Assembly (NCBI RefSeq): GCF_004010195.1
Contig: NC_057757.1
Span: 9,170,815-9,234,814, forward strand
DNA from: Chiloscyllium plagiosum
Lineage: Eukaryota
Reading direction: 5' to 3'
DNA length: 64,000 nt
A program made the position numbers and the translations under genes. Positions 3,110-60,353 of the stretch are shown in pieces; position 1 is the stretch's first letter; every line of letters begins with the position of its first letter. The notes under the pieces are model-generated. The model ran no database searches. It saw nothing but the letters and a program-made list of their open reading frames with translations, and was not told the DNA's origin.

Positions 3110-3318
3110 GAATGATGTGGAGGAGCCGGTGTTGGACTGGGATGGGCAAAGTTTAAAATCACACACTGCCAGGTTATAGTCCAACAGGTTTAATTGGTTG
3201 ATTTGTGAAGTATTAGAGTTATTCTCCACAACCACCTGATGAAGGAGCAGCGCTCCGAAAGCCAGTGCTTCCAACCAAACCTGTCGGACTCTAACCTGGC
3301 GTTGTGTGATTTTTAACG
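3110..3318. mobile_element. Inverted-repeat Penelope-like insertion (family C)
   Basis: AAAATCACACACTGCCAGGTTATAGTCCAACAGGTTT (3155-3191) is the reverse complement of AAACCTGTCGGACTCTAACCTGGCGTTGTGTGATTTT (3277-3313); contains a hammerhead motif. Confidence 0.75.
3233..3267 (+). ncRNA. Minimal hammerhead ribozyme motif, U16.1 mutated to C
   Basis: CAC-CTGATGA-A-GGAGC-agc-GCTCC-GAAA-GC-CA-GTG: stem I CAC/GTG, perfect 5-bp stem II. Confidence 0.7.
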
Positions 3319-5200
3319 CGGTCACCCAGAGAAGCTGGTGGAGGCGGGGGGGAGGGGTGGTGCTGAGCGACCTCTGGCCGCCTGGTGGGTCTCCTTCCCT
3401 CGCTGCTGGCCAGTGGGACTCAGGCGGAGCTTCGGGGGAGTCACTTTACCGGCAAACGCCCCCACCCCCCCCCCCCTCCCCCCCTCGCTTCCCCCCCCCC
3501 CCCCCCCCCCCACCCTGCCGCCTTCCCCAGCACCACTCCCTCCCACACCCACACTCCCACCCCTCACCAACGACCTGTCGGATCGGGACATCTGAGAAAC
3601 CCTCAGGTGCAGGAGTGAGGGGCGCACAGTTAACCTGGAAGATAAGAGAGAGAGTGTGGAGGCAGCAGCATACTTGACTGGCTGTGCAGTTGCTGAGCGG
3701 TTGATTTGGAGCCAAAGTTGGTAGGCGGTTGGTGCCAACCAGGACTCCTTCGGTCCATCAGAGGAAGGGGGTCTGAAAAGAAAAGGCAAGAGAGGGAGAG
3801 AACTGAAAAAAGTAAGTAAAATAGAATCTTTCAAAATAACAACAGATTCCACACCCGTTCCCTCCCACCCCAAACACACCCCACTCCCAACTACCAACTC
3901 TACTTTGCTCCTCTTCAAGCCCACAACAAAGGGCACCACCAAAATGACTAGAGGCCCCACATGGAGCCTTTGATTGGGATTCACGGTGAACCACATCAAT
4001 GTTGACTCTTCCCTCATCTCCAGGGGCTCCGCCACGGAAACCGAGGCTGGCCAGCAGAGCCGAAACGGCCGCTCGTGCCTGACGGAGCTGCGCGCGCTGC
4101 CAAACCAGGCGCAAGGAATCAAACGCCGCCCCATTGACCGCCAAGGGCTGGCGCAAGGTGCCAAGGGCAATGTGACACAATCCAATTTCTCTCTCTTTTT
4201 TTTTTGCCATAGAAAGATCAGTGGATGGAGTCTGGAGAGCCCCCTCCCCTCCTCCTCTGAGGAGAACACGGCCTCAGGCAAAGGGTCGGCCGCCTCAAAC
4301 TCAGATGAGGAAGCTAACCTTCACTCCAAGGGCAGGGAATTCTCAACCCCAAAAGAGTTTACGGTTGCTCCATCTTTGACTGCGTGGGATTGGCCGACCT
4401 TTGCACTCCAACGGGAACCGAGGAACGTTGTGGGGGGTGGTGGGGGTCAGGTTCGGGAAACGGACTTGAGGTAGATCAACTCCGATCCCACTGAAGGGCA
4501 GAGCGGCGTGTTCATGATTAGTATCTCTGACCAAATGTTCACAGTGCCAGCTACATGATCCTCGTTAAACCACCCCCCCCCAGGTTCACTCATCTCCCGA
4601 GGGAAGGAAATCAGCTATCCTTCACCAGTCTCGGCTGGATCATGACTCCAGGCCCCCTCAGCGAATGTGGTTGACTCTGAAGAGCCCTCTGAAATGGCTG
4701 AGGGAGTCACTCGGATATGAATGCAAGAAGGTAGCTCACTGTCACCTTCTCAAGAACCAGAGATCTTTTTTATGAAGTACCCCTCATGGAATCTTGCTAC
4801 GTGCACGCAGACTGTCACAATGTCTTCCACTTTGATAATGACTGAAAGTATATGCAATCATACTCCACCCATCCTATGTGTGTCATAGCTTTGGCTATGT
4901 AATGCCTGGGGATGCCTTGTGACAGGAAAGAAGTTAGGAAAACCTAACTTTTTTTTAACCCTCCTCTCAGAAGGGGCTATTAGGGATGGGAAATAAATGC
5001 TGACCCAGCGAGTGACACCCGTCTCTCTAACGAGGTGGTGAAGAGTCTTTGGTGAGTTGGTTGCCGTAGGATTCCCACGTCGGCAATTCTCCGAGCTGAG
5101 GTTCGATTCAGAGCTGGTCGCGACCCTGGTTGGACAGATCGCAAGTTCGCCTGAGACGGTGGCAACCCTTTAATGCTCAGTGGGGGACAGGCCAAGAGGG

Positions 5201-5660
5201 CTGGTTGTGGGTTTGCTCGCTGAGCTGGAAGGCTCGTTTTCAGATGTTTCGTCAGCATACTAGGTAACATCTTCAGTGAGCCTCCGAATGAAGCACTGGT
5301 GGTGCAGTCCGCTTTCTATTTATGTATTTAGGTTTCCTTGGGTCGGTTATGTCATTTCCTGTGGTGACATCATTTCCTATGGTGATATAATTTCCTGTGA
5401 TGATGTCATTTCCTGTTATTTTCTCAGGGGTGGTAAATGGGATCCATAGGAAATGATGTCACCACAGGAACTGATGTCAACGACCCAAGGAAACTCAAAC
5501 ATATAAACAGAAGGCAGGGTACAGCCCCAGTGCTTCATTCGGAGACTCACTGAAGATGTTACCTAGTATGGTGACGAAACGTCTGAAAACGATCCTTCCA
5601 GCTCAACGAGCAAACCTACATCCAGAACCTCAACCTGAGCTACAAATCTTCCCAAAACTC
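5201..5660. mobile_element. Penelope-like element as inverted pseudo-LTR pair (family B)
   Basis: 5201-~5385 is the reverse complement of ~5446-5625; right arm has a 35-nt extension; internal ~20-bp tandem ATGTCATTTCCTGTGGTGAC x4; hammerhead motif in each arm. Confidence 0.85.
5547..5586 (+). ncRNA. Minimal type I hammerhead ribozyme motif, core intact
   Basis: TCA-CTGAAGA-T-GTTACC-tagtat-GGTGAC-GAAAC-GTC-TGA; stem I TCA/TGA, 6-bp stem II with one G-U, GUC triplet, predicted cut after 5583. Confidence 0.8.
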
Positions 5661-6430: not shown

Positions 6431-6826
6431 TAAGTGACTTGCGGATGGTGAATAGTCCTTGGTGAGCTGTTTGCTGCAGAATTCCCAATCCCTGAGCTGG
6501 TCTGTAGCCCAAGGAGTGGATGTTGTGGATTCAGTGCACAGTTGGATGGATGAGACAATAAAACTCCTTGGAATCTGAGATTTGAAATGGAGAGAGATGA
6601 CTCTGAGGTAATGGATTCAGAATTCACTCCAGGGAGTATCGCAGTTTCAGATTTCCTAACCAAAGGTTTTGCCCCATAGTAGGGGAGGGGAAACCAGAGG
6701 GCATAGCTTTAAGCTGAGAAAGGAGAGACATATGAAAGAGTCCAGGGGTGGGGGCAACCTTTTTCGTACAGAGGGTGGTGAGTGGAACAGGAACAGGCTG
6801 TCAGAGATAGTGGTGGAAGCGAGTAC

Positions 6827-7582
6827 AATTTAGCGTGGCCAATCCACCCTAACCCACACATCCCTGAACACTATGGGGCAATTTAGCATGGCCAATCCAC
6901 CCTAACCAACACATCCCTGAATACTGTGGGGTAATTTAGCATGGCCAATCCACCCTAACCGACACATCCCTGAACACTATGGCGTAATTTAGCATGACCA
7001 ATCCACCTTAACCCACACATCCCTGAATACCAAGGGGCAATTTAGCATGACCAATCCACCCTAACCTACACATCCATGAATACCAAGGGGCAATTTAGCA
7101 CAGCCAATCCACCCTAACCCACACATCCCTGAACACTATGGGGCAATTTAGCACAGCCAACCCACCCTAACCTACACATCCCTGAACACTATGGGGCAAT
7201 TTAGCATGGCCAATCCACCCTAACCTACACATCCCTGAACACTATGGGGTAATTTAGCATGGCCAATCCACCCTACCCACACATCCCTGAACACTATGGG
7301 GTAATTTAGCATGGCCAATCCACCCTAACCTACACATCCCTGAACACTATGGGACAATTTAGCATGGCCAATCCACCCTACTCACACATCCCTGAACACT
7401 ATGGGGCAATTTAGCATGGCCAATCCACCCTAACCTACACATCTTTGGATTGTGGGAGGAAACTGGAGCATCTAGAGGGCACCCACGCAGACACGGGGAG
7501 AATGTGCGTCAGGCTGGATTCGAACCCGGGTCTCCCTTGGCCCTGGGAGGCAGCGGGTGCTAACCACTGAGCCACCGTGCCA
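6827..7582 (-). repeat. 53-bp minisatellite (~11-12 units) continuous with V-SINE body and head
   Basis: Unit AATTTAGCATGGCCAATCCACCCTAACCTACACATCCCTGAACACTATGGGGC repeated 6827-7445, then SINE 5' half. Confidence 0.9.
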
Positions 7583-9000: not shown

Positions 9001-9714
9001 GAAAATACAGTCTGTTTACCCTATCCATGCCCCTCATGATTTTATAAACCTCTATAAGGCCACCCCTCAGCCTCCGAAGCTCCAGGGAAAACAGCCCCAG
9101 CCTGTTCAGCCTCTCCCTGTAGCTCAAATCCTCCGACCCTGGCAACATCCTTTTCTGAACCTTTTCAGATTTTTTCAACTGCTCATTTGGAGGGGAACTG
9201 ATGCAGGCACAATATGCTGAATGGGTTGCTTCCAGACTGCAGCAATCCTGTGCTAGGTTACAGCTGTACTGAACCCTGGCTAAACCATGCTCCCGAGTGA
9301 CTGTGAATGGTTCTCGGCTTCCATTGACCATTGGAGAGACACTCAAAGATGTGCTGTAAGTGTTACAGCAAAATACACAGGAACTGAGAGGTTCCGCAAA
9401 GCCGGAACAGGGTGGGGCTTGCTCCTGTACAGAAAGCGTAACCTGAGGGGTGCAATACCATGGCGTGTCATAAATTTATTGAGTACGTTAATAGGGCAGG
9501 TGGAGAGGGGAAGAAACAACATGGGGATCATCAATCCTCACAAATCCCATCAGGAATTCCAGAAAAAAAAACATCTCCACCCAGAGAGGGAGGAGAACAT
9601 GGGACTCACTTCCACAGGGAATGAGTGAGGGGAATGATATGGAAGGGGGAAGCTGGATAAATGCGCAAGGAAGAGAAGGAATAAGAGGATAGGCTAACGA
9701 GAGAAGATGTCAAG

Positions 9715-9808
9715 ATCGGGGAGTGGTGCTGGAAAAGCACAGCAGGTCAGGCAGCATCCGAGGAGCAGGAGAGTCGACGTTTCGGGCAAAAGCCCTTCAT
9801 CAGGAATT
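9715..9808 (-). ncRNA. Family A Penelope-like fragment with intact hammerhead core (9771-9808)
   Basis: Minus strand: TTC-CTGATGA-A-GGGC-tttt-GCCC-GAAAC-GTC-GAC. A more decayed copy lies at ~9990-10112. Confidence 0.75.
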
Positions 9809-10239
9809 AGGGAAGATTAAGAGGGGTTTGGAAGAGGTTTGCCTGGAGCAGGATACCAGCATTTGCCAGATGGGCTGAAAGGTCCATTTCCCTGTGCTGT
9901 ATAACTCAATGTAACTTTGAGAACCAGTAGAATGTGGAGGCCCAGTGCAAGTTGTGTGGAAGTTACTCTGGCAGTTATGTAGTCAGGCGGAAGTGGGTAC
10001 TGCAGATGCTGGAGATTGGAGTCAAGATTAGAGTGTTGCTGGAAAAGCACAGCAGGTCAGGCAGCATCCGAGGAGCAGGAGAGTCGACGTTTTGGGGAAA
10101 CGCCCTTCAGGAGGAACGAGGCTGGGTTATGTAGTTAACTTACTGCATGTCTGGGATCATGTTACAGGGCACCAGTAACAGAGAGTGGTAGTGCACTGTG
10201 ATGGGCTAGTTAATCACTGGGAGATGAGCTAATGCTGAC

Positions 10240-10745
10240 CTAGGGAGTGTTGCTGAACAAAGAGACCTTGGAGTGCAGGTTCATAGCTCCTCGAAAGTGG
10301 AGTCACAGGTAGATAGGATAGTGAAGAAGGCGTTTGGTATGCTTTCCTTTATTGGTCAGAGTATTGAGTACAGGAGTTGGGAGGTCATGTTGCGGCTGTA
10401 CAGGACATTGGTTAGGCCACTGTTGGAATATTGTGTGCAATTCTGGTCTCCTTCCTATCGGAAAGATGTTGTGAAACTTGAAAGNNNNNNNNNNNNNNNN
10501 NNNNNNNNNNNNNNNNNNNNNNNNNNNNNNNNNNNNNNNNNNNNNNNNNNNNNNNNNNNNNNNNNNNNNNNNNNNNTGGTACAATTGCAACATTTAAGAG
10601 GCATTTGGATGGGTATATGAATAGGAAGGGTTTGGAGGGATATGGGCCGGGTGCTGGCAGGTGGGACTAGATTGGGTTGGGATATCTGGTCGGCATGGAC
10701 GGGTTGGACCGAAGGGTCTGTTTCCGTGCTGTACATCTCTGTGAC
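10240..10745 (+). mobile_element. CR1/HER1 LINE 3' end (spans a gap)
   Basis: LYRTLVRPLLEYCVQFWSP motif and CR1 tail ending CTCTGTGACTCT. Confidence 0.9.
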
Positions 10746-13440: not shown

Positions 13441-13762
13441 CCCCGCAGTGCCTGTCCTGGGAGTGTTTGATGGGGGACAGTGTAGAGGGAGCTTTACTCT
13501 GTATCTAACCCCGTGCTGTCCCTGTCCTGGGAGTGTTTGATGGGGACAGTGTAGAGGAAGCTTTATCTGTATCTAACCCTGTGCTGTCCCTACCCTGGGA
13601 ATGTTTGATGGGGATAGTGTAGAGAGAGCTTTACTCTGTATCTAACCCTGTGCTGTCCTTGCCCTGGGAGTGTTTGATGGGGACAGTGTAGAGGGAGCTT
13701 TACTCTGTATCTAACCCCGTGCTGTCCCTGTCCTGGGAGTGTTTGATGGGGACAGTGTACAG
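13440..13762. repeat. ~69-bp tandem repeat, about 4.5 units
   Basis: Unit CTGGGAGTGTTTGATGGGGACAGTGTAGAGGGAGCTTTACTCTGTATCTAACCCCGTGCTGTCCCTGTC; a diverged single unit at ~13055-13135. Confidence 0.9.
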
Positions 13763-13924
13763 ATCAGTCATACCAGAATGGAAACATTGACTCTATCTGC
13801 CTCTCATCATGGGCGCTGCCAGCCCTGCTGAGTTTCTCTATATTCATTTCATATTTCTAGCATCTGCAGTAATTTGCTTTTAACCAAGACTGAGAGGGGA
13901 CTTGACAGGATGGAAGGGGATGGG

Positions 13925-14001
13925 ATCCTGATGAAGGCCTTCAGCCTGAAACGTGGACTCTCCTGCTCCTCGGATGCTGCCTGACCTGCTGTGCTTTTCC
14001 A
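13925..14001 (+). mobile_element. Family A Penelope-like fragment with hammerhead core and non-cleavable GUG triplet
   Basis: CTGATGA-AGGC-cttca-GCCT-GAAAC-GTG at 13928-13955. Confidence 0.65.
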
Positions 14002-14599
14002 ACATGATCATATTGAATGGCGGTGCGAGCTTGAAGGGCCGAATGGCCTCCCCCTGCACCTGTTTTCTCTGTTTCTAATCCCTCAAAGTATCTGAGGAGA
14101 GCAGGGAGCAGGTCCACATGGATTAGGTAGATAGAAAGCACCCTGCATTTGTATAGCGCCTGTCAGCCGCTTCAGAAGATCCCAAAAATACCTGGAGTGG
14201 AGAGAGTTGCCTCGTGAGGAAGGATTGGACAGTTTGGGCTTAGACCTGCAGGAGTTTAGAAGCGTTAAGGAGCGACTCGGTCATGATACTTAAGATTCTG
14301 AAGGGACGTTGAGAGTTCTGATGTCGGGTCTCTGGAACTCGAAACATTAATTGTTTTTTCCTGTCCACAGATGCTGCCCAGATCTGCTGAGTTTCTCCAT
14401 TATTCTCTGAGTTTTTGTTTGATCAACTGTCCAGCGTCTACAGTGCTTTGCTTTTACGTGGATATGGGAGAATCTGGAACGAGAGACCACCGCTAAACAA
14501 AAAATCAGAGGGCACTGTTTCATCCAGAGATGATAAAGAGTTCCATTCTTACAGAGTGCAGGGGAGTTTTTTTGGAACTCTGTGCCTCTGTGCCCCACA

Positions 14600-15134: not shown

Positions 15135-16300
15135 GGGTGGCACGGTGGCTCAGTGGTTAGCACTGCTGCCTCACGGCACCAGGGACCCGGGTTCGATTCC
15201 AGCCTCGGGCAGCTGTCTGTGTGGAGTTTACACATTCTCCCCGTGTCTGTGTGGGTTTACTCCGGGTGCTCCGGTTTCCTCCCACAGTCCCAAGATGTGC
15301 AGGTTAGGATGGATTGGCCATGCTAAATTGCCCCATAGTGTTCAGGGATGTGTAGGTTAGGGTGGATTGGCCATGGGAAATTGTCCCATAGTGTTCAGGG
15401 ATGTGTAGGTTCGGGTGGATTGGCCATGGGAAATTGTCCCATAGTGTTCAGGGATGTGTAGGTTAGGGTGGATTGGCCATGGGAAATTGTCCCATAGTGT
15501 TCAGGGATGTGTAGGTTAGGGTGGATTGGCCATGCTAAATTACCCCATAGTGTTCAGGGATGTGTAGGTTAGGGTGGATTGGCCATGCTAAATTNNNNNN
15601 NNNNNNNNNNNNNNNNNNNNNNNNNNNNNNNNNNNNNNNNNNNNNNNNNNNNNNNNNNNNNNNNNNNNNNNNNNNNNNNNNNNNNNNNNNNNNNNNNNNN
15701 NNNNNNNNNNNNNNNNNNNNNNNNNNNNNNNNNNNNNNNNNNNNNNNNNNNNNNNNNNNNNNNNNNNNNNNNNNNNNNNNNNNNNNNNNNNNNNNNNNNN
15801 NNNNNNNNNNNNNNNNNNNNNNNNNNNNNNNNNNNNNNNNNNNNNNNNNNNNNNNNNNNNNNNNNNNNNNNNNNNNNNNNNNNNNNNNNNNNNNNNNNNN
15901 NNNNNNNNNNNNNNNNNNNNNNNNNNNNNNNNNNNNNNNNNNNNNNNNNNNNNTTAGGGTGGATTGGTCGTGCTAAATTGGCCCATAGTGTTCAGGGATG
16001 TGTAGGTTAGGGTGGATTGGCCATGGGAAATTGTCCCATAGTGTTCAGGGATGTGTAGGTTAGGGTGGATTGGCCATGCTAAATTGTCCCATAGTGTTCA
16101 GGGATGTGCAGGTTAGGGTGGATTGGCCATGGGAAATTGTCCCATAGTGTTCAGGGATGTGTCGGTTGGATGCATTAGTCAGGGGGAAATGTAGAGTAAT
16201 AGGGTGTGGGAATGGGTCTGGGTGTGTTACCCTTCAGAGGGTCAGTGTGGACTTGTTGGGCCAAATGGCCTGTTTCCACACTGTAGGGATTCTCTGATCT
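15135..16300 (+). mobile_element. V-SINE with large internal 53-bp array spanning an assembly gap
   Basis: Head at 15135, array ~15295-16165 (gap 15595-15953), SINE tail to ~16300. Confidence 0.85.
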
Positions 16301-18207: not shown

Positions 18208-18209
<2 letters not shown>

Positions 18210-18250
<41 letters not shown>

Positions 18251-19620: not shown

Positions 19621-19801
19621 GATGTGACATTTAGTCGTAACAGACTTGAGGAAACTGCATAGCAAACCCTGCTCCTATTTTGACTGTAGGAATGAAGTAA
19701 GGCAGAGAAAGAGGCCGGTCATAGAGATCAGGGGTGGTCAATAACAGAGACTCGGGGTGGACAATCCTGGGGGCGGGGGGGGGGGCTAATTACTGCAGAT
19801 G

Positions 19802-19997
19802 CTGGAACCACAGATGCTGGAGATCACTGTGGGTCAGGCAGCGTCCGCGGAGAGAGAGAGAGAGCCAGCTAACGTTTCGAGTCTGAACGACTCTTCATCA
19901 GACGAATGAACAGTCATCTAAGCTGGGAATGTTAGCTGGCCCTCTCTCTGCAGACGCTGCCTGACCCGCTGTGATCTCCAGCATCTGTTGGTTCCAG
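19802..19997. mobile_element. Inverted-repeat Penelope-like insertion (family D) with hammerhead core on minus (19869-19902)
   Basis: Arms CTGGAACCACAGATGCTGGAGATCAC... and ...GTGATCTCCAGCATCTGTTGGTTCCAG; minus strand CTGATGA-A-GAGTC-gttca-GACTC-GAAAC-GTT. Confidence 0.8.
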
Positions 19998-20493
19998 AGC
20001 AATGCTGGAGGTTTGGATAAAACAGAATCCCGGAGCGGGATTGGAACAAGTCATGGTGCTCTGTAGCGGCTACACCGAAAGGCCCTGGGCCGCTGGAGCT
20101 GGACGCTCGGGACGTCAACCAACTGGAGGCAGGAGCATTGTGAAAACTGGGAATGGGATGTCGACAGAATCGCATATAGGAATGGAGCAGTTGTGGCTTC
20201 ATGACAGGGCTTAATGACTGAGAGCAACTTGGCCCCACTCACCAAATTCTCCTCCTTCTGAACAATAAGGGACCAGTTCTATCTCCAACAGCTGTTAAAA
20301 CTACACGGGGAGGAGGGGGGGGGGGGGGGGGAACCTGGGGTCACCAGATCTCCCCAACTGACGCACAAAGACAACTTTCAATTTGGGAGATTCCAGGGTT
20401 CAGAGAGATCATGACTGGGCCATAGGAGAAAGTGAGGGCTGCAGATGCTGGAGATCAGAGCTGAAAATGTGTTGCTGGAAAAGCGCAGCATCC

Positions 20494-21066: not shown

Positions 21067-21350
21067 TGTTGTTGTGGTTCTGTTCGCCGAGCTGGGAATT
21101 TGTGTTGCTGACGTTTTGTCCCCTGTCTAGGGGACATCCTCAGTGCTGGGGAGCCTCCTGTGAAGCACTGAGGATGTCACCTAGACAGGGGACGAAACGT
21201 CTGCAACACAAATTCCCAGCTCAGCGAACAGAACCACAACAACGAGCACCCGAGCTACAAATCTTCTCACAGACTTTGACCACCTACGGGCGAGAGACAC
21301 TAAGACAAGCCAGGAAATGGGAATCCTGTGCCAACTACCTAAGCGCCACA
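21067..21350. mobile_element. Penelope-like inverted pseudo-LTR insertion (family B2) with ORF-start tail and 12-bp TSD
   Basis: TTGTACATTCTC duplicated at 21055-21066 and 21351-21362; inverted arms; tail translates TTYGRETLRQARKWESCANYLSAT, resembling Penelope/Poseidon ORF N-termini. Confidence 0.85.
21165..21204 (+). ncRNA. Minimal type I hammerhead ribozyme motif, core intact
   Basis: GCA-CTGAGGA-T-GTCACC-tagaca-GGGGAC-GAAAC-GTC-TGC; stem I GCA/TGC; predicted cut after 21201. Confidence 0.8.
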
Positions 21351-21904
21351 TTGTACATTCTCCCCTGTGTCTGCGTGGGCTTCCTCCCACAATCCGAAGA
21401 TGTATAGGTTAGGGTGGATTGGCCATGCTAAATTCCCCCATAGTGTTCAGGGATGTGTAGGTTAGGGTGGATTGGCCATGCTCAATTACCCCATAGTGTT
21501 CAGGGATGTGTAGGTTAGTGTGGATTGGCCATGCTAAATTACCCCATAGTGTTCAGGGATGTGTAGGTTAGGGTGGATTGGCCATGCTAAATTGCCCCAT
21601 AGTGTTCAGGGATGTGTAGGTTAGGGTAGATTGGCCATGCTAAATTGCCCATAGTGTTAGGTGCATTAGTCAGGGGGAAATGGGTCTGGGTGGGTTACTC
21701 TTCAGCGGGTCGGTGTGGGCTTTTGGGCTGAAGGGCCTGTTTCCACACTGTAGGGAATCTGATCTGAACTCTTCCATAACGACTTTGAAACATGCAGTGT
21801 TATGGTCACTATTCCCAAAATACCTGCCCGCTGAAACTTCATCCACTTGACTAGTTTTATTCCCTGGGATTAGGTCCAGTGCTACTCCATCTCTGGTAGG
21901 AGTA

Positions 21905-24814: not shown

Positions 24815-25390
24815 CGAGCTGCAGAGGGTTCAGAGGAGGTTTACCAGGATGTTGCCGGGTATGGAAGGTTTGATTTCTAAGGAAAGCCTGGGACTTTTTC
24901 CACTGAAGCCCAGGAGGTTGAGAGGCGACGGTATAGAAGCCTATAAAATAATGATGGGTGTAGCTAAAACTTAATGGTAGTTGGCTCTTCCCTAGGATGG
25001 GTGGATTGCAAGACTAGAGGGCACACGTTCTTAAGCTGAGAGGAGAGAGATTTGGGAAAGACGCAAAGGCCTTTTTTGGTTTACGTAGAGGGTGGCCCGC
25101 GTGTGGAATGTGGGCAAGTGGTGGATGTGGGGACAGTTACAGACCTCTGGAGAAGTGCGTGAACGGGAAAGGTTTGCCTGGACCTGGCCAGGAGCAGGCA
25201 CTGTTTTGGTTTGGGATTACGTTCAGCATGGACCGGTTGGATCGAAGGGGGTCTGGATCAGAGCGGTGCTGGAAAAGCACAGCAGGTCAGGCAGCATCCG
25301 AGGAGCAGGAAAATCGACCTTTCGGGCAAAAGCATTTTACCTTGTCGGATCGAAGGGTCTGCTTCTGTGTTGTTGTGTGACTTTATGTCT
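24815..25390 (+). mobile_element. Degraded CR1 3' end with nested family A Penelope-like fragment (~25250-25335)
   Basis: CR1 tail split by the insertion, with GGATCGAAGGG repeated on both sides. Confidence 0.7.
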
Positions 25391-25800
25391 CTGAAAACGA
25401 GCAGGGGGAATAAAATGCATTGAGTTTTGCTATGTCAACTGTCATGCTGCAGTTGCAGGTACTGGCCACTGGGTAGCTCCACAGAGCATTGGTTTTGTCT
25501 CTTCCAACTCAGCCTTAGACTTGAAGATAGAGCCTGACATTCATCAGGTGGTTTTTGACAAATACCACATAGTTTCCGTCTACAGGGACAGTCCCTTGGA
25601 TGCAAAGGGGAATCGTTGGAGAATCATTGGTCAAAGTGCCTCTTATCATCTGTCGCACTTTCAAAAGTCAGTGTTTGTTAGCAGACGAAATGAAGCAGTT
25701 TTTCAACAATGTATTCCTGGCGTGCTGCTGAGAACGGTCACTGTTTTATCCCGGATTTTTCCTCTAATGCTGAATCAAAATGCAGAAAGAACTGCCGACA

Positions 25801-25980
25801 CTGTAAATGAGAAACAAAGGCAGGAGTTGCTGGAAAGGCTCAGCAGGCCTGGCAGCACCCGTGAAGAGCAATCAGAGTTAACGTTTCAGGTCCGCTATTC
25901 TGAGGAAGGGTCAACACACCCGGAAACGTTAACTCCGTGCTGCCGGACCTGCTGAGCTTTTCCAGCAACTTCTGCCTTTG
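25801..25980. mobile_element. Inverted-repeat Penelope-like insertion (family E) with hammerhead-like core at 25900-25930
   Basis: Arms CAAAGGCAGGAGTTGCTGGAAAGGCTCAGCAGG and CCTGCTGAGCTTTTCCAGCAACTTCTGCCTTTG; CTGAGGA-A-GGGT-caacac-ACCC-G-GAAAC-GTT. Confidence 0.7.
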
Positions 25981-27020
25981 CTTGTGTCTCATACTTAATG
26001 GGACATTCCCAAAACCTCTGGTGCCCTCATGCAGTGTAAAAATAGCCTTTCACTGGAATTGTGATTCTTGTGAGCGGTCCTGATGAGTGCACGACTTTGA
26101 CGAGACGTGCCCTTTTGTGGCGATAATCGTGCTCCACTCTGTCAAGTGGTAATCGGTTTACTTTGTAAATGTTGCAGAAAGCAGGATTTGGAACAGAAAG
26201 CGGGAATGTATAAGCAGCTGAAACCATGCTCGTCAGGTTCTACTTGAGCTCAGAGTTTATCCAGCCTGAAGTCTGTACGGGGAGCAGGTTTGTTCACAGC
26301 TAAACATCAGGCAGAGTGCCCAGCGCATGTCCAGAACTAAGGCATCATATGGTAGTGGCAGAGGCCATTCATGCTTGACTTTGGTAGTGCTACCCGAATA
26401 GATCCACTCCACCCCAATTCCATGTAAGATTTGTTGCAGTCAAGTATTTTTGGAGACCCCCTTTTGACAGTTCCTACCGAATCTGCTTCCCCTGCTCTCT
26501 GAGGCCTTGCGTTCCAGATCACAACAATTTCGCCCTTACGTTAACCTGCAAGCCTCTTCCCACTTGCCTCAAATCTATGCTGCTCTGGTCGCTGGCGTTA
26601 AATGGTTGCAGCCCATCAAGTCTGGGCAGGAGTAGGCCATTCGAGCCCTCATGCCTGCCCCACCTTCCAACGGATCCTCTACCTCGACACCATGTGCTTT
26701 TCCCCACGCCCCTCAGCACCTTCTGAAAAGCTGTTCCTTCCTTCCTTTCTCCATGATGTGGCCTCCATGGCTCTCTGCAGCAGAAAACTCTGCAGAGTCG
26801 CCCAGCACTACCCCCCCTCCCCCCACCGAGTGAAGAAACGTGTCAATCCAAAATGGCCGACCATGTATACGGAGATTGTGGCCCTTAGTTCTTTCCGGAA
26901 GAAATACCATTCCTGTATCCAGCAAATTTTGTCAGTGGTTTGTTCTAGTTAGATGTTTCTGCACTCCCCCTTTCAATGGTCCCTATTTGTGATTACTTTC
27001 ACTGTTGCCCTAGACAATAC

Positions 27021-27340: not shown

Positions 27341-28349
27341 AGATCGCAACAGCTCCCTGAATCAAAATACTGGCCTAATGCTAATCTGGGGCCCTTCTCC
27401 CAGTTAGGCGAAAGTGAGGACTGCAGATACTGGAGATCAGAGCTTAAATATGTGTTGCTGGAAAAGCGCAGCAGGTCAGGCAGCATCCAAGGAACAGGAG
27501 AATCGACGTTTCGGGCATAAGCCCTTCTGCCAGTCGTCTCAAATCTTGCCCTCTTGATCTGTCCAGCCCTGTTAGAGTTCTACACGTTTCAATTAGATCC
27601 CATCTCGCCCTTCTAAGCTCCGGTGAAGACAAGCCCAGTCGAGCCAATCTCTACCAGGAATCAGTCTGGTGGCCCTTAGCTGTACTCTCTGTGCAGCAAG
27701 TATAGATAAAGAGACCAAAACTGCACACCACACTTCAGGTGTGGTCTCACCAAGTCCCTGTATATGATTCTCAGGATTTTGATCACCTTGTTAAATTACA
27801 CCCCACCCCCCGGCCCCATCTCAGTCACCCTCAGCCCTTCTGCGCTATGCCATCATCGCTGGGATATTTCTGGGAAATCTCCTCTGCCCTGTTACTTTGA
27901 TATCCTCCCCAACAACGATGCGCATACCTGGAAATGAACTTGCTCACCTCCATATGAATTAGAGGCACTTAGTTCCCTCCTGTACCATTCAATAGAACCC
28001 TGTCTGATCAGATTGAGGTTTAATTCCACATTTCCGCCCACTCCAGATACCCTTCTCACTCAACGTTGTCAGTCAGAAATCGATCCACCTTCCTCCCTTG
28101 AACATATTCACTGGGTCTGCCTGCCCCGATCCCTGGGGAAGACAATCCCAAACGCTCACTACTCTCTGAGAGTAAAAAGGCTTCTCGTCTCTGTGTTGAA
28201 TGGGGAACCCTTTATTTTGAAATAATGTACCCCCCCCCCCCCACCCAGTTCTGTCGTTAAGCGATTGTGTAGTGATTGTAATGAGGTCAGCCTGGAGGAC
28301 GTTGTAGACTAGGAGTTCCCTGATTGGTGCTGTTCAGGGGAGGTAATAG

Positions 28350-28859: not shown

Positions 28860-29100
28860 GAGGCTGGACGGGTTTACAGAGATAGGGAGGGGGTGTAGGG
28901 TCTGCAGGGGGTTACAGAGATAGGGAGGGGGTGTAGGGGCTGGTGGGGGTTACAGAGATAGGGAGGGGGTGTGGGGTTTCATTCAGTGAGTGACCTAGGG
29001 GCTGGAGGGGGTTACAGAGATAGGGAGGGGTGTAGGGGCTGGAGGGGACTATAGAGATAGGGACGGGTGTAGGGCTGTGGGGTTACAGAGATAGGGAGGA
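28860..29100. repeat. G-rich ~37-bp minisatellite
   Basis: GGGTTACAGAGATAGGGAGGGGGTGTAGGGGCTGGAG x~6; same unit as at 1565-1680. Confidence 0.85.
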
Positions 29101-33993: not shown

Positions 33994-34191
33994 AGGAGAA
34001 AATGAGGACCGCAGACGCTGGAGATCAGAGTCGCGAGTGTGGTGCTGGGAAAGCACAGCAGGGTCAGGCAGCATCCGAGGAGCAGGAGAGTCGAGCAAGT
34101 CAGGAATGGGCCTGATGAAGGCCTTATTCCCGAAACGTCGACGCTCCTGCTCCTCGGATGCTGCCTGACCTCCAGCGCCACACTCGCGACT
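33994..34191. mobile_element. Inverted-repeat family A Penelope-like insertion
   Basis: Left arm on minus, right arm starting CCTGATGAAGGCCTTATTCCCGAAACGTCGA (34111-34141; stem II damaged). Confidence 0.8.
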
Positions 34192-39729: not shown

Positions 39730-42380
39730 GCTCAGGTTGTTCTGGTGAAGGCGCTCTCTTGCAACGGCGGCGTGTGTCCACTCAGGTACGCCTTCGAGCT
39801 TGACAGCCGTCCGGCTCACAAAGAGGACGAGGTATGGGCCTTTCCACCTCGGAGAAAGAGAACCCTTTCCAAATGATTTTATCATCACGTAATTCCCCGG
39901 GGTGGAACAGATGCATGGGGCCATCACTCGGTGTGGGAAAGCCCTCCTTGATCGAGCCATGGTTTTTGATTAGATTCCCGCCAGTGTGGAAACAGGCCCT
40001 TCAGCCCAACAAGTCCACACTGATCCCTCCGAAGAGTAACCCACCCACACCCATTCCCTCTACCCTGTATTTACCCCTGACTAATGCACCTAACACTATG
40101 GGCAATCCACCCTGACCTGCATATCCGTGGTTGCGGGTGATAACCTGGCACAGTGACTTGGCATAGTCCTGAAGGGACTCATGAGTAAGAAGGATTTTTG
40201 GGGGTGGCTTCTGAGGGTGTTAGTCCCGTAGTTCGACTTACTTGGTTCCTGAGAGTGTAAAGGGCTAGCGGCAATCCCTCTGGCCAGGGCAAACCCGTGT
40301 CCTGGGTGACCTTGGTTAAGGTGGTTTTAAGGGTGCTGTTCATCTGTTCCACCATCCCCGAGGACTATGGCTGAAATGGAATGTGACAATACCCAGAATT
40401 TTACTAACCCCTTTTTTAACCTCAGCGGTGAAACGTGTTCCCTCTGTCACTATTAAAACTATTTGGGACACCAAACCGAGGAATCACATCCTTCATAAGA
40501 CCCTTAACCACTGCCCAAGCATCAACTTTTCATGTACAGAAAGCTTCCTCCCATTTAGTAAACATGTTCACTCGAACGGACATGTATTTGAAACCCTGTT
40601 CGGGTGGCATATGGGCAAAGTCAGTCTGCAGGTGATGAAAGGGGCCAATCTAGGATGGGCAGGGGATCATAATTGGCCAATGGTTGAGCATTATTATTCT
40701 GTATGAAAAAGTGAGGACTGCAGATGCTGGAGATCAGAGTCAATATCAGAGTGGTGCTGGAAAGGGACAGCAGGTCAGGCAGCACCCGAGGAGCAGGAAA
40801 ATCGATGTTTCGGGCAAAAGCCCTTCATGCTCTGCAGGCACATCAGGTAGCAGGGAACTAGTGCTTGTGCTGCTCCCGCGAAGCCAGGAGCATACCAGCT
40901 TTGTCTTACTGCAGGTATCATTCCCCGCTTCCCTGCGTGACTGACTCCATGGGCAGCATGCAGGTGTGATTGGGGACAGACGATTTTATCATCCGGCTGT
41001 TGTACCTTCTCTAAGCTGCCTGATTCCCTAGCTCCTATACGTGCCCAACTATCTTTCTCAGCTGGAGGGGTGTCCCGCTGAGCAGCTGATATCCCATCAG
41101 GTCTAAAGCCTTTTCTGACTTCCTTGCTTTGAGAGCCTGTGAGACATACACAGTGGGAGCTAAGGCTGCTCGTTTAGGAGCTTGGTCGGTATAGGCATTG
41201 CCTTGGAAGACTGCAGCAGTATGGACAGCACACCTAAACACAGCCACAGTAGAGGGGAGCATAATAGCCTGCAAGAGGTTGTTGATGAGTAGGGCTCTCC
41301 GCGTACCCTTAGGGAAGCCGTGTCCATGTATGTTGGCGACTACTGTAAGTAAAAGCAAAAAGGGCGGCACGGTGGCACAGTGGTTAGCACTGCTGCCTCC
41401 CAGCGCCAGAGACCCGGGTTCAATTCCCGACTCAGGCGACTGACTGTGTGGAGTTTGCACATTCTCCCCGTGTCTGTGTGGGTTTCCTCCGGGTGCTCCG
41501 GTTTCCTCCCACAGTCCAAAGATATGCAGGTCAGGTGAATTGGCCACGCTAAATTGCCCGTAGTGTTAGGTAAAGGGGTAAATGCAGGGGTATGGGTGGG
41601 TTGCGCTTCGGCGGGTCGGTGTGGACTTGTTGGGCCGAAGGGCCTGTTTCCACACTGTAAGTAATCTAGTCTAAAAAAAGGTATTGAATCTTGTGGGAAT
41701 AATTTAATGGAGGAAAGGCTGAGCAGCGGTGTATTACAGGAAAAACAGGTAATGGTAGCAGGAAGGCTTGTAATGATAACATTAGTATCTGGCACCATTA
41801 GAGAGCAGGGTATAACGATGGTGTTAATTGCCCTGCACAAACCTCCATTGGCCCAGTTTTGTTGGCTTGGGGATAGGGAGTTCAGGCGAGTTGCAAGGGT
41901 TAACAGTAGGGACCAAGATTCCCTGTTGCAGAAGGGAGTCGATAACAGGTTTAATCCCTTTGGCAGCAGCCGGTGACAAATTGTACTGTTGTATAGAAGG
42001 CACCTGGTTTCACAGTGACTGTGTGAGGCAGGGCTGATAACACTGGGCCTGCATGGTTGGAACGTCTTACCCATAATGACAGAGGCAGAGTACTGAGGAG
42101 TATAGGGTTGGCATAGGTCAGGGTGGGTAGTGGTGCCTGCAGGACCAAAACTGTAGACACAGAGGAGGGGCACAATTCCACCGGTCCTAAACCAGCAATC
42201 TGTAAGGAGCCGGGGTCCGACGGCTGTATGGGCTGAAATTCCCGTGGCAAACTCTGGACCTTGTATCAGTATCAGAGCTGGCAGGAAGAGGGAGGCTCCG
42301 AGAAATGGGTGGTTCAGGAGTACACCACAACTGAAGCTACAAGGCACTCCCCCCCCCATCTCAACGTCCATCATGGTTTT
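39730..42380 (-). pseudogene. pol: Endogenous retrovirus pro-pol (class I, gamma/epsilon-like), deleted and interrupted
   Basis: RT QYNLSPAAAKGIKPVIDSLLQQGIL...WRFVQ and QYLFAFTY...TWTRLP*GYAESPT; RNase H end LLQAIMLP..VAV..C..H...GNAYTD; IN PFHHLQTDF...VIPRFGVP...SDRG...GMVEQMN; GPY module PRWKGPYLVL. SINEs at ~39968-40122 and 41362-41672; Penelope-like insert ~40704-40829. Confidence 0.9.
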
Positions 42381-47399: not shown

Positions 47400-50300
47400 G
47401 CAATAGAGCCATAGAGCATGGAAAAACATCTTTTGGGCCAATTCATCCATGCCAACCAGATATCCTAAATTAATCTAGTCCCATTTCCCAGCACTTGGCC
47501 CATATCCCTCTGAACCCTTTCTGTTCATATAACCATCCAGCTGTCTTTTAAATGCTGTAACTGTACAAGCGTCCACCACTTCCTCTGGCAGCACGTTCCA
47601 TACACACACCACCATCTGTGTGAAAAAGTTGCCCTTTAGGTCCCTTCCAAATCTTTTGCCTCTCACCCTAAACTTCTGCCTTCTAGTTCTGGACTCTCCC
47701 AACTCAGGAAAAAGACCTTGTCTATCCACACTCCTCATGATTTTATAAACCTCAATAAGGTCACCTTCTGCCTCCGACGCTCCAGGGAAAACAGCCCCAG
47801 CCTATTCAGCCTCTCCCTTTGGCTCAAACCCTCCAACCCTGGCAACATCCTTGTAAACCTTTTCTGAACCCTTTCAAGTTTGACAACATCTTTCCGATAG
47901 CAGCGAGACCAGAATTGCACGCAACATTCGAAAAGTGGCCTGACCAACATCCCGTAAAGCTGCAACAAGATTTCTCAACTGCTATACTCAGTGCTCTGAT
48001 CAATAAAGGAAAGCATACCAACACCTTCTTCACTATCCTACCTATCTGCGACTCCACTTTCAAGGAGCTATAAATCCACACTTCAAGGTGTCTTTGTTCA
48101 GCAACACTCTCCAGGACCTTACCATGAAGTGTATAAGTCCTGTCTTTCCAATATGCAGCACCTCGCATTTATCTAAACTAAACTCCATCTGCTACTCCTC
48201 GGCATATTGGCCCATCTGATCAAGTTCTTATTTTACTCTAACCTTCTTCACTATCCACGACATCTCCAATTTTGCTGTTATCTGCAAACTTGTGAACTAT
48301 ACCTCCTATGAAAAGTCATTTATATAAATAACGAAAAGTAGTGGACCCAGCAGCGATCCTTGTAACTCACCATTGGGCACAGGCCAGGTATGAAAAACAG
48401 CCCTCCACCACCACCTTTGAGCAAGTTCTGTATCCAAATGATTAGTTCTCCCTGTATTCCATGTGATCTAACCTTGCTAACCAGACTCCCATGGGGAACC
48501 TTGTTGAACCTTTCTAAAGTCCATATAGATCACATCCATCGCTCTGCCCTCATCACACCTCTTTGTTACTTCTTCCAAAAACGCAATCAAGTTAGTGAGG
48601 TATGATTTCCCACACACAAAGCCATGTTGACTATTCCAAATCAGTCCTTGCCTTTCCAAACACATGTACATCCTGTCCTTTAGGAGTCCCTCCCACAATT
48701 TGCCCACCACAGATATCAGGCTCACTGGTCTATAGTTCCCTGGCTTGCCCTTAACACCTTTCTTAAACAGTGATACCACATTAGCTAACCTCCACCTCAC
48801 CTGTGCCTATTGATGATCCAAATATCTCAGCAAGGGGCCCAGCAAACACTTCCATTGCTTCCCACAGGGTAAAACTGATTAGGTCCTGGGGATTTATCCA
48901 CTTTTATGCATTTTAAGGCATCCATCTCACACACACCCCTGTAATATGGACATTCTTCAAGATGTCACCATCTATTGCCCCACATTCTGTATTTTCCACA
49001 GTAAACACTAATGCAAAATACTCATTTAGTATCTCCCCAGTCTCCTGCAGTCACATGCATATTCCGCCTTGCTGATCTTTGAATGGTCTTATTCTCTCCC
49101 TAGTTACCCTGTTGTCCTTAGTGTTTTTGGAAACTGCCTTTGGATTCTCCTTAATTCTATTTGCCAAAGCTATCTCATGTCCCCCTTTCGCCTTCTTGAT
49201 TTCCCCCTTAAGTATACTACCATTACCTTTATACTCTTCGAAGGATTCACTCGGTGTCTGCTGTCTAACCCTGACATATGCTTCCTTCTTTTTCTTAACT
49301 GACACCTCAATTTTTCTAGTCATCCAGCATTCCCTGCACCTACCAGCCTTGCCTTCCACCCTAACAGAAACACTCTGTCTTTGGACTCTCGTTATCTGAT
49401 TTCTGAAGGCTTCCCATTTTCCAACTGTCCCTTTACCTGCGAACATCTGCCTCCAATCAATTTGTGAAAGCTCTTGCCTAATACTGTCAAAATTGGCCTT
49501 CCTCCAAATTATATCTTCAACTTTTGGATTGGTCTATTCTTTTCCATCACTGTTTTAAAATTTACAGAATTATGGTCACTGGCCCCAAAGTGCTCCCCCA
49601 TTGACACCTCAGTCACCTCAGTCGCCTTATTTCCCAACAGTAGGTCAAGTTTTGCACCTTCTCTCGTAGGTACATCCACATACTGAATCAGAACATTTCC
49701 TTGTAACACTTAATAAATTCCTCTCCATCTAAACCATTAACAATATGGCAGTCCCAGTCTGTGTTTGGAAAGTTAAAATCCCCCACCATAATGACCCTAT
49801 TGTTCTTACAGATCTCTGAGATCTCCTTACAAATTTGTTTCTCAATTTCCCGTTGACTATTGGGGGGTCTATAATACAATCCCAATAGGTCATCATCTCT
49901 TTTATATTTCTTCGTTCCACCCAAATAACTTCCCTGGATGTATTCCCAGGATTATCTTACCCAAGTACAGCTGTAATGCTATCCCTTACCAAAAACACGA
50001 CTACTCCTCCTCTCTTGCACCCCCCCACTTTTTATCCTTCCTGTAGCATTTGTATCCTGGAACATTAAGCTGCCAGTCCTGTCCATCCCTGAGCCATGTT
50101 TCTGTAATTGCTATGACATCCCAGTCCCATATTTCTAACCATGCCCTGAGTTTATCTGCCTTCCCTGCTCGGCTTCTTGCATTGAAATAAATGCAGTTTT
50201 ATTTATCAGTCCTACCTTGTTCTCTGCTTTGTCCCTGCCTGTCCTGACTGTTTGACTCGCTTCTTTTTTCAACTGTACCAGTCTCAGATTGATCTCTTTC

Positions 50301-50600
50301 CTCACTATCTCCCTGGGTCCCACCCCTTCACCTTATTGTTTAAATCCTCCTGAGCAGCTCCCTGCCAATATATTAGTCCCCTTCCACTTCAGGTGCAATC
50401 CATCCTTCTTGTACAGGTCATTTCTTCCCTAAAAGAGATTCCAATGATGCAAATATGTGAACCCTTCTCCCCTGCACCAGCTCCTCAGCCACACATTCAT
50501 TCTATCCTACTGAGCACCAGGTGTAATCCAGATATTACTACCCTCGAGGACCTCCTTTTTAAATTCCTGCCTAACTTCCTATGTTCTCCCTTCAGAATCC
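47400..50600 (-). mobile_element. Near full-length degraded CR1/HER1 LINE (ORF2 EN-RT plus ORF1 end)
   Basis: EN motifs GLYYRPP, MVGDFNFP, LDLLLGN, SDHNSV; RT PGNYRPVSL, QHGF, DVIYMDF; 3' tail at 47400-47500. Confidence 0.95.
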
Positions 50601-50866
50601 CATCCTACCACCTATTCACTCATCTATTCACAATCATTCGAAGGCTGAGCCTATAAACTTACCATCTGATATCTAGGAGGAGAAAGTGAGGTCTCCTACT
50701 GAGCACCAGGTGTAATCCAGATATTACTACCCTCGAGGACCTCCTTTTTAAATTCCTGCCTAACTTCCTATGTTCTCCCTTCTGAATCCCATCCTACCAC
50801 CTATTCACTCATCTATTCACAATCATTCGAAGGCTGAGCCTATAAACTTACAATCTGATATCTAGG
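50505..50866. repeat. 173-bp direct duplication flanking an 18-nt Penelope-like terminus
   Basis: 50505-50677 and 50694-50866 differ at 2 positions; spacer GAGGAGAAAGTGAGGTCT equals the reverse complement of 58797-58814. Confidence 0.9.
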
Positions 50867-57600: not shown

Positions 57601-60353
57601 GGACAAATTGTATTCCTGGAGGTGAGAGTTTGTCCAATACTCCTACCACAGATTCTCCACTCTTCTCTAGACCCTCTAGCCTCACTTTACATAACTGAGC
57701 ACTTTTTGTCTCACCATGGATTCTGTTACCAGTACCATTTCTGGCAATAGTCCCTCAGGAGTCCATATCTCCTCATCCTTCAGCATCACAAACTGAGAGG
57801 ATCCTGTGTCCTTTAATATTGTAACCTCTTTACCTGCTGCTCCTGGCCTATGTGAATAAACGTTACCCTTGCATGTATATTTTTTAAGCAGATCCGGCAC
57901 TTCCTCCTTAACCAATCTCTGATCATCTTGTGCACTCTGAGGCAGTTGTCTAACTTCCTTTGTGCTTTTTGTTACTAGCCCAACAAAACTCCCAGCCTTG
58001 TCTGGTTTCCCTACATCTGGCTTTCTCCTAGCCCACCAACACTGTGATTTTGTGTGGCCCACTTTATGACATTGAAAACACTGGAGCTTTTTAATTTCTT
58101 TGTCTCCCTCTAGGGTGTCTTTTTTACCCTGTAGCAAGTTATCCTTGTGATCTTCACTCAAATCTACCTTTCCCTTTTCACGTGAGGCTTTCTCTTTGCC
58201 CCAGTTTCTATCCCTCATGGACTGAAATTGATTCTGGAAGCCAAATTATGTTTTACGGACCAGGTCATGATCATCAGCCCCTTCAGCTGCTAACATCGCT
58301 GCTTTAACTCTCTGCTCTTCCACATGTGTTCGCACTACTTCAGGCAGTGAATTTCTGAATTCCGTCAAAATAATTACCTCTCTAAAGGCATCATAGGTTT
58401 GCTCGATTTTTAAAGCTATTATCCATCTATTGAAATTACTCTGTTTGATCCTTTCAATATAGGTTTGACCAGGGTCCCACTTTAGATTCCTAAAACGTTG
58501 TCTATAGGCATCTGGTACAAGCTCATATGCACTTGGAATGGCTATTTTCACCTCCTCATACTCCCCCGATACCTCCTCTGATAGTGATGTGAATATCTCA
58601 CTAGCTGAAAATGTGTTGCTGGAACAGCGCAGCAGGTCAGGCAGCATCCAGGGAACAGGAGAATCGACGTTTCGGGCATAAGCCCTTCTTCAGGAAGGCT
58701 TATGCCCGAAACGTCGATTCTCCTGTTCCCTGGATGCTGCCTGACCTGCTGGGCTTTTCCAGCAACACATTTTCAGCTCTGATCTCCAGCATCTGCAGAC
58801 CTCACTTTCTCCTCGAATATCTCACTAGCCCTACTGACAAATTTTGTTTGGATCAACAAAACCCACATTGCCACTGGCAATTGCATTTGTTTAGCCACCT
58901 TTTCAAATGAGATGAAAAAGGCTTCCACATCCTTCTCATCAAATTGAGGCAATGCCTGAACATACGTAACCAGTTTCTCACTCGGCTCCTGACCACCAGG
59001 GGCTTGCTCATCCTCACTCTCCTCCTCACTAAGCCTACCCTCAGCCTTTATCTCCAGCCTTTTCAGCTGACTTTCCTTTTTAAGTGTCAGTTTTTGAAGT
59101 TCAAAAGCTCTCTCTTTTTATTTCTCTGCTCTCATTCCCCCTCTTTTCTGCTGCTGCTCTCTTTTTCCCTCTCTTCTGCTTTTGATCATAACTCAAACTG
59201 TCCCATTTCTGCTGCCTTTTCCTTATCTGTCCCCTCTAACTCAAGCTGCTTCACTGGCAGTTGTATTCTTGCCATCTCGATAGATTCTGATGATTTCTCT
59301 GGCATTTTTAAATGCTGAGCTACTGCTGTAATTATCTCTCCTTTCCTCACATAGCACATAGAACATTACAGCGCAGTACAGGTCCTTCGGCCCTCGATGT
59401 TGCGCCAACCTGTCATACCAATCTGAAGCCCATCTAACCTACACTATTCCATGTACGTCCATATGCTTGTCCAATGACGACTTAAATGTCCAATCCAGTC
59501 AGGTCAGCTAATTCCTGCAATTTGGTCTTATTCACCTTTTGCAAAACTTCCAAGGCCACTGCGTCCACATCCAGTAAACTTCTGATGACTGAAAGAGCCA
59601 TTACTGTCCCAAACTTTGTCTACCCAACCAAACCAACACCCGAAATCAAGACACTAGTACCTACCACTTGCTGTTTAAAATCCCACAAAGAGCCCTCAGT
59701 CTATTATGGACTAGGCCAGACCACTCAGAACATTTTTAAGATGGCAGCCCCAGACCATAACTTTGCAATTTGTTTTGGTCAGTGGACAGTGAAAATTACC
59801 CAGATTAAGTTAGCTAGGTTGACTACTAGATTTTAAAACAGACAAAACATTATTCACAAAATTACACAATGAAACACAAAGAACAGAATAAAAAACCCCG
59901 ACAGAACTCAAGCAATCCAACTAGACTGAATTATGCTGTTTCCAAATAGACACAACAGTCCCAATAAGCAAACTCCCTTTAAAACCCAGTATAAATGGAA
60001 CACATGCTTACAGGTTGAAGATGAAGGGCAGAAAAGAGAGAGTTTCCACACAGCTCACTGTTGAGCTCCTCACCAGTTCAAAACTGAACTAAAAACTGCT
60101 CAGCTCAGCTAGAGAGCTGACCACTCTCCTTTCATTATACAGGTCACTTCTAAGACATGACCACTTTGGCCTGAAGTCTCATTTGTTTACATATAAACAA
60201 AAGGCCCCTCAAAACCCTTTTCATCTCTGTACCAAACCAGACTGATCGGAGCCCGGCCCGGTTTATTGCCCCTCTAAAAAAAAAGCCAAGGACACAGAGT
60301 CAATTTGAGCTCAGGAACAGCTTTTAGAAAAAAAAGGGACTAGCTTTGTGACA
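54689..60353 (-). mobile_element. Gmr1-type Ty3/Gypsy LTR retrotransposon (LTR-gag-PR-IN-RT-RH), degraded, cut by gap
   Basis: LTR 60353-59702; gag AYELVPDAYRQRFRNL and knuckle CFQCHKVGHTKSQC; PR ILKDTGSSQ; IN GGHF...HFYWPGL, IDCIGPLP, QSDQGSNFTS (56.9-55.8 kb); RT PIKQHPYR, PATFQRL, YIDD (55.6-54.8 kb); RH DYTKPFKVAIDAS. Nested V-SINE 56893-57204, hairpin 58606-58814, CR1 tail ~59355-59490. Confidence 0.95.
58606..58814. mobile_element. Young family A Penelope-like hairpin insertion with up to 15-bp TSD and intact hammerhead core (58661-58696, minus)
   Basis: GAATATCTCACTAGC at 58591-58605 and 58815-58829; near-perfect inverted arms; TTC-CTGAAGA-A-GGGC-ttat-GCCC-GAAAC-GTC-GAT. Confidence 0.9.

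Follow-up and report, generated by a model that had tools for sequence, protein, structure and literature searches.

Short hammerhead-bearing repeats in Chiloscyllium plagiosum are probably 5'-truncated ends of six Penelope-like element families

A 64,000-nucleotide stretch of Chiloscyllium plagiosum DNA (NCBI RefSeq assembly GCF_004010195.1, contig NC_057757.1, forward-strand positions 9,170,815 to 9,234,814; hereafter the window) contains numerous short repeats with a predicted minimal hammerhead ribozyme. We conclude, with a probability of roughly 0.8, that these repeats stem from six families of Penelope-like elements (PLEs), as 5'-truncated and often head-to-head copies of the element end, a pseudo-long terminal repeat (pLTR) plus a tail, and that most of the short copies are likely run-off products of uncleaved element RNA. 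The parts of this reading differ in strength: the short pieces are very probably the pLTR ends of truncated PLEs, whereas the run-off step taken by itself is about evenly poised. A first-pass annotation of the window had assigned the repeats to separate non-autonomous Penelope derivatives; this is not supported, as in every family some longer copies run into PLE coding remnants.

All eight CTGANGA...GAAA motifs listed in that annotation are present. Five of them (core nucleotide C3 at 5550, 9803, 19901, 21168 and 58693) retain both the core and the paired stem II that had been claimed for each, but three are broken: U16.1 is a C at 3236, G12 is an A at 21143, and an extra G precedes GAAA at 25900. 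In copy 19901 the native stem I has been lost to an inversion junction. Additional cores have C3 at 13928 and 34112 on the forward strand and at 1132 and 5276 on the reverse strand, with a remnant at 213 (forward). We counted 18 insertions in the window, comprising 25 arms and including seven head-to-head pairs (Table 1); the total is in good agreement with the earlier estimate of about 20 copies or remnants in 64 kb.

The descriptor search that had been proposed was run with a strict definition (core, stem II of at least 4 bp, palindromic stem III and NUH, with stem I optional). It matches the window four times, whereas 100 shuffles gave 0.08 matches on average and at most 2. In 100 arbitrary 10-kb stretches from large contigs only (958,712 non-N bases) it finds 55 motifs outside the window versus 0.7 in shuffles (10 shuffles, maximum 2), which scales, roughly, to 2x10^5 descriptor-intact motifs in the 3.56-Gb genome. 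An Rfam scan of the window returned no hammerhead family match. Its 15 rows (14 microRNA families and one CRISPR repeat) are all below the gathering score and lie mostly on inverted pairs; we rejected the microRNA matches as artefacts of these pairs. A CTGATGA at 23651 was likewise discarded as a hammerhead; it belongs to a different dispersed repeat.

Family majorities were built by clustering 2,027 relaxed matches across all loci; clusters without pairing, derived from other repeats, were left out. The six majorities keep CTGANGA-H, GAAA and U16.1 while stems I, II and III differ. Family A has stem I TC/GA (ATTC/GAAT in one subfamily), stem II GGGC/GCCC, helix III ACGU and C17; family B has TCA/TGA, GTTACC/GGTGAC and ACGU; family C has CAC/GTG, GGAGC/GCTCC, AGCU and A17. 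Family D combines stem I GCA/TGC and helix III ACGU with a stem II whose commonest form is GTCACC/GGGGAC, containing one A.G mismatch, where the first-pass annotation had given GTCCCC/GGGGAC, with GTCACC at 21165. Family E has AGCT/AGCT, GAGTC/GACTC, ACGU and U17, and family F AGTT/AACT, GGGTC/GACCC, ACGU and U17. By eye, comparison of the majorities shows between-family covariation over 2-4 bp of stem I and 4-6 bp of stem II, and pair 15.2-16.2 is C-G or G-C. The claim of at least six families with covarying stems is therefore upheld, all three stems varying in pairs.

The type I order CUGANGA / GAAA / UH is found in the family majorities, which equal the published consensus of PLE minimal hammerheads, CUGANGAH G..C GAAAN-palindrome-NUH (Cervera & de la Peña 2014, PMC4209133), in line with the Penelope assignment of the first-pass annotation. 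A G10.1-C11.1 pair is present in all six families. Helix III is palindromic and loopless in all of them, although the 'AACGTT' described before is really ACGU plus H17=U. Exactly one extra base follows A9 in 52 of the 55 descriptor matches and in every family; the CChMVd viroid precedent invoked for it is unneeded, the extra base being an already listed feature of PLE hammerheads. The genome holds more than six hammerhead families. Further ones were seen at L205:9486-9567 and 9709-9792, L250:4716, L268:9762(-) and L302:5652(-), among them B-like variants and a combination of stem I AGTC/GACT and stem II GGGT/ACCC.

When each family was used to search the genome, the shared sequence at the loci returned extended for variable lengths upstream of the motif. 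In all six families the longer copies are contiguous with GIY-YIG coding remnants and in most also with reverse transcriptase (RT) sequence, the frames being broken. GIY-YIG remnants lie 290-560 nt upstream in families A, B, D and E; longer B copies continue through GIY-YIG into RT motifs; and in A, C, E and F a Cys-rich, Zn-finger-like linker precedes GIY-YIG, C, E and F also having RT-side sequence. The reverse, protein-first search gave the same linkage: a family D hammerhead lies downstream on the same strand at 11 of the 12 top D GIY-YIG loci, and a family A hammerhead at 6 of the 12 top A loci. Four of the seven misses (three A, one D) run into N gaps. In a protein atlas, a single source, both queried fragments score 0.96 to eukaryotic GIY-YIG/HTH_animal clusters, these families sitting on under half of the members of the matched clusters. 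No PLE coding remnant was found by tblastn in the window itself. With the linker before GIY-YIG as clade criterion (Craig et al. 2021, PMC8557442), families A, C, E and F, which have it, would fit the Neptune/Nematis type, and B and D, which lack it, the Penelope/Poseidon type.

The anatomy of the copies was analysed in 1,145,934 non-N bases from 120 stretches (L172-L271, L308-L327). They contain 277 insertions (A 150, F 59, C 43, B 12, D 7, E 6), the low counts of B, D and E being due to the end of the random sample at 1.146 Mb. This corresponds to 242 insertions per Mb and 4.8% of the sampled DNA, or some 8.6x10^5 insertions by extrapolation, and bears out the very high copy number suggested earlier. 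Candidate counts from the genome DNA search were rejected as copy numbers (16 for family D DNA versus 94,177 for its protein). The 3' ends are bimodal, with end points about 30-40 nt apart. A tail is present on exactly one arm in 70 of 75 inverted pairs. Target-site duplications of 8-21 bp flank 29/74 inverted pairs compared with 0/71 shifted controls, and 14/193 single insertions compared with 1/185 controls. In 39 of 58 untied inverted pairs (12 ties; p=0.012) it is the tail-less arm that extends further 5', possibly a hint at the order of two priming events. The continuous range of 5' lengths and the layout of two arms with one tail, a known pattern of ordinary PLE insertion, also speak against separate non-autonomous families.

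The 5' ends are not spread evenly. Measured relative to C3 in 305 uncensored arms of families A, C, E and F, 152 starts fall at -13..+5 (8.0 per nt) versus 14 at -50..-14 (0.4 per nt); 48 lie at +6..+24, 36 downstream of +33 and 39 upstream beyond -50. The predicted cut site, +25..+33, has 16 starts (1.8 per nt, with 2.5 and 0.9 in the neighbouring intervals), and hammerhead cleavage was rejected as the origin of the 5' ends because of this lack of enrichment. The pile is not a reference artefact: upstream sequence is common to another arm in 9 of the 72 single arms in the pile, two of these belonging to a native, unreferenced subfamily. A TATAAA or CATAAA is found at -31..-39 in families C, E and F, so that a TATA-like box sits about 30 nt above the pile. 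TATAAA occurs at -47 in family B and at -52 in D; family A has a conserved TTATCT at -33/-35. No description of the 5' pile was found in the literature searched, the repeat databases Dfam and Repbase lying outside that search.

These data suggest the following model. By analogy with the lizard Poseidon (Frangieh et al. 2024, PMC11167929), the PLE protein would nick both target strands and prime at two internal RNA sites, yielding one tail-less and one tailed cDNA, which would then join head to head via short microhomologies. We further propose that element RNA starts 3-13 nt ahead of the core, about 30 nt below the TATA-like box. Priming on the first pLTR would therefore give dead, promoter-less copies of 90-130 nt, RT running off the 5' end of uncleaved RNA. 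In its specific form, with Neptune-type transcripts starting 3-13 nt before the hammerhead, uncleaved RNA producing the 90-130 nt copies and the Poseidon-type families behaving differently, we offer this tentatively, at slightly under even odds. Selection on the ribozyme would act in active master elements, inserted copies being left to decay. Cleavage by these hammerheads is predicted to require a dimer or help from protein.

In the Anolis carolinensis Poseidon, two internal priming sites define the tail and both target strands are extended; unprocessed RNA is the main template; and the hammerhead needs protein, is dispensable for insertion and has no RNA-seq ends at its cut site, according to Frangieh et al. 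2024. Anolis Poseidon and the elements described here are different families, and the Poseidon open reading frame (ORF) starts in stem II. One public RNA run from the same or a related organism contained 1,856 matching reads on both strands. On both strands read depth increases about tenfold at the core, and at -3 there are 108 loose ends of mixed sequence; molecule ends form no pile, in a library type that can show neither cut ends nor a start site. The reads are consistent with passenger copies in host transcripts that mirror the genomic pile. A second sequencing run gave no matching reads, and two further ones were contigs.

Several findings weigh against this account. None of 22 B and D arms starts within -50..+33 despite the TATA boxes of these families, and run-off is therefore not general. 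Family A lacks a canonical TATA box, the pile spans 19 nt rather than one base, and a cap-derived G was seen in none of 10 cases, too few to decide. Fly Penelope differs in having a TATA-less internal promoter and an intron (Schostak 2008), which ends at helix I (Cervera & de la Peña 2014). The search for an intact ORF was negative, the 12 long open frames inspected as PLE ORFs being N gaps in the assembly. Pfam matches are weak and below cut-off (GIY-YIG E=7e-4, RVT_1 E=5.5e-3); three of eight fragments match, one of them to an unrelated family, and five do not. In nearest-neighbour dimer folding, which covered 11 of 16 copies and yields energies uninformative on cleavage, the double-hammerhead lies 27 kcal/mol above the dimer minimum for 19901 and 8-11 kcal/mol above it for the other four intact copies. 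Conservation among copies belongs here as well. The core is better kept than its flanks in family A (0.965 versus 0.882, p=0.001-0.005, 125 copies), as the first-pass annotation had expected, but not significantly so in family C (p=0.05-0.07, 32 copies) or F (p=0.2-0.5, 27 copies), and all these figures are biased upward, the arms having been picked for reaching the core. All 11 core bases are retained in 82/125 A, 19/32 C and 8/27 F copies. This check is weak because inserted copies decay neutrally; with the core barely better kept than the flank, selection is visible between families and not among copies, and it is the comparison between families that carries the real conservation signal.

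Separately, a pyrimidine tract followed by AG, resembling a 3' splice site, lies 12-27 nt upstream of the core in families A and F (loci L253, L280, L098). Family C has no AG within 40 nt preceding the core, and splicing therefore cannot explain the pile in all families.

The missing B and D pile and the breadth of the pile elsewhere would also fit a structured hammerhead acting as an RT barrier or a microhomology hotspot, the pile then not marking an RNA 5' end. Short inverted microhomologies such as TTC/GAA are found repeatedly at the junctions. However, single non-inverted arms pile as much (72/165) as paired arms (80/140), and the drop in starts lies upstream of the hairpin, at a position that tracks the distance from the TATA-like box. 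We consider a barrier or hotspot rather unlikely.

A second alternative accepts the PLE origin and holds that the short pieces are true non-autonomous elements, pLTR-only RNAs mobilised in trans by PLE protein in a SINE-like manner. Their donors would be truncated copies that keep the promoter, or fixed palindromic masters. Short copies far outnumber coding copies, with just the 39 of 305 A/C/E/F arms reaching more than 50 nt upstream; the lack of an intact ORF fits; and non-autonomous PLE derivatives are already described in Chlamys (Craig et al. 2021) and as animal retrozymes. In addition, one exact junction, that of the pair at 58603-58813, recurs at 19 of 30 loci. These loci were selected with a junction-spanning query, whereas the random sample contains the junction once; they derive from two sequence variants with matching arms (13 A/A, 5 C/C, 1 mixed) and have their tail on one arm or the other, a pattern consistent with independent formation that disfavours a fixed palindromic master. 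Moreover, no family stands apart from coding copies, the 5' lengths of B and D copies form a continuum, and the repeats show neither the fixed 5' end nor the lineage separate from coding copies of a SINE-like element. As an explanation of the short copies as a whole, trans-mobilisation thus appears improbable. A share of the copies may still have arisen in this way; sequence alone cannot tell a pLTR-only from a full-length donor. As a separate observation, the arms of the pair at 58603-58813 differ at a subfamily-diagnostic site (the one such case among the 19 loci of its junction type), which may reflect a later mutation or two RNA templates in one insertion.

Rolling-circle retrozymes, in which tandem units are cut by the hammerhead, circularized and re-inserted, share the type I hammerhead with palindromic stem III and have been reported, as non-LTR retrozymes, in one cartilaginous fish (Li, Clavereau & Pollet, bioRxiv 10.64898/2026.07.22.740005), but the ends here do not map to the cut site, the 377 arms include just eight same-strand neighbour pairs within 600 nt, none multi-unit, and Tandem Repeats Finder found no hammerhead-bearing array in the window; with tandem arrays absent, the elements are therefore not retrozymes, an origin to which we assign very little weight.

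Truncated PLEs with inverted partners thus remain our preferred interpretation, and most of their features have precedents. The metazoan PLE hammerheads of Cervera & de la Peña 2014 share the extra base 9/10.1, the G10.1-C11.1 pair, the loopless palindromic helix III and the short helix I; they likewise form several covarying families per genome, are mostly solo, stem from truncated PLEs, and occur in opposite-strand pairs, there 100-700 bp apart. The genome-wide figure of about 2x10^5 compares with about 4,000 in coelacanth and 9,000 in Xenopus in that work, in which other descriptors were used. The parts of that paper covered here name no shark, ray or other cartilaginous fish, and the 5' pile is not mentioned there. 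The one paper found on hammerhead ribozymes together with Penelope and shark names the shark for the shape alone. Endonuclease-positive PLEs as described by Craig et al. 2021 show the same 5' truncation, adjacent inverted truncated copy and 30-40 bp tail at one end; in contrast to these, very short arms dominate here. The animal non-LTR retrozymes also have a type I hammerhead in pLTR-derived sequence, but tandem units, every one with a hammerhead, are their defining feature, whereas the present copies are solo or inverted.

Other repeats in the window include 53-bp tandem arrays (one of 52 bp) with 4-17 units. They have expanded within a dispersed SINE-like repeat, probably of the HE1/V-SINE type. 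ARAGORN detected no tRNA gene in the window. The dispersed repeat containing the discarded CTGATGA is presumably CR1-like.

Table 1. Hammerhead-bearing insertions and other repeats in the window (positions count from its first nucleotide; C3, core nucleotide C3).
Feature	Position	Strand	Remarks
Family A, longer copy	1..323	+	continues beyond the window edge; native upstream sequence of 212 nt or more; deletion of stem II region
Family A, arm with tail	1008..1136	-	starts -3; decayed; C3 1132
Family A, remnant	2738..2839	-	
Family C, head-to-head pair	3115..3317	-	tail arm (3115-3197), starts +36 of core
Family C, tail-less arm of same pair	3224-3317	+	C3 3236; GGAGC/GCTCC; U16.1 to C, broken
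Family B (Penelope/Poseidon-type), inverted pair	5201..5660	+	arm intact, with tail; C3 5550; GTTACC/GGTGAC; predicted cut after 5583; TATAAA 47 nt upstream of core
Family B, second arm of same pair	5201..5660	-	tail-less; decayed motif; C3 5276
Family A, single tail-less arm	9722..9816	-	core intact; C3 9803; GGGC/GCCC; predicted cut after 9776
Family A, single tailed arm	9985..10126	-	decayed core; target-site duplication 10 bp
Family A, single arm	13926..14004	+	decayed; C3 13928; H17=G
F-like old arm	14314..14449	+	decayed
Family E, inverted pair	19788..19997	-	arm with intact core and tail; C3 19901; GAGTC/GACTC; H17=U; native stem I 5' strand replaced at junction
Family A, tail fragment	20422..20490	-	adjoins assembly gap
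Family D (Penelope/Poseidon-type), inverted pair	21067..21277	+	arm with intact core and tail; C3 21168; stem II A.G mismatch
Family D, second arm of same pair	21067..21277	-	C3 21143; G12 to A
Family A, remnant	25254..25333	-	starts inside stem II
Family F, inverted pair	25785..25986	+	C3 25900; extra G preceding GAAA; tail on - arm
Family A, arm with tail	27405..27528	-	starts +5
Family A, inverted pair	33994..34178	+	C3 34112; stem II decayed
Family A, arm with tail	40702..40828	-	starts +4
Family A, young inverted pair	58603..58813		99% to genomic copies; flanking 13-15 bp target-site duplication
Family A, tail-less arm of same pair	58603..58813	-	hammerhead intact; C3 58693; predicted cut after 58666
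Family A, tailed arm of same pair	58603..58813	+	starts +10
53-bp-type arrays	2426-2724, 6826-7443, 15294-15594, 15954-16167, 21399-21658, 31459-33111, 36785-37015		families D8, D10, D11, D13
Dispersed repeat with CTGATGA copy	23531-23810, 10241-10470, 47885-48109		
Other tandem arrays	13451-13763, 50505-50866, 28870-29099		periods 69, 189 and 37-38 bp

The motif, its extra base, the diversity of families and the solo or inverted layout have been known since 2014, and the six families belong to that group; little is added to the ribozyme itself. The value lies in a large natural data set: with some 240 insertions in each Mb, making up about 5% of the sampled DNA, the ends of PLE insertions become statistically readable. 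The inverted pairs also matter for annotation, where they are scored as false microRNA hairpins. If the pile marks the RNA start, it would lend in vivo support to uncleaved RNA being the template, as found in vitro in 2024, and would sharpen the question of what the conserved hammerhead is for. If run-off is true, the genome would preserve several hundred thousand fossil traces of where PLE transcription starts, where priming occurs and how strands are joined, and would provide in vivo evidence that insertion ends do not come from ribozyme cleavage.

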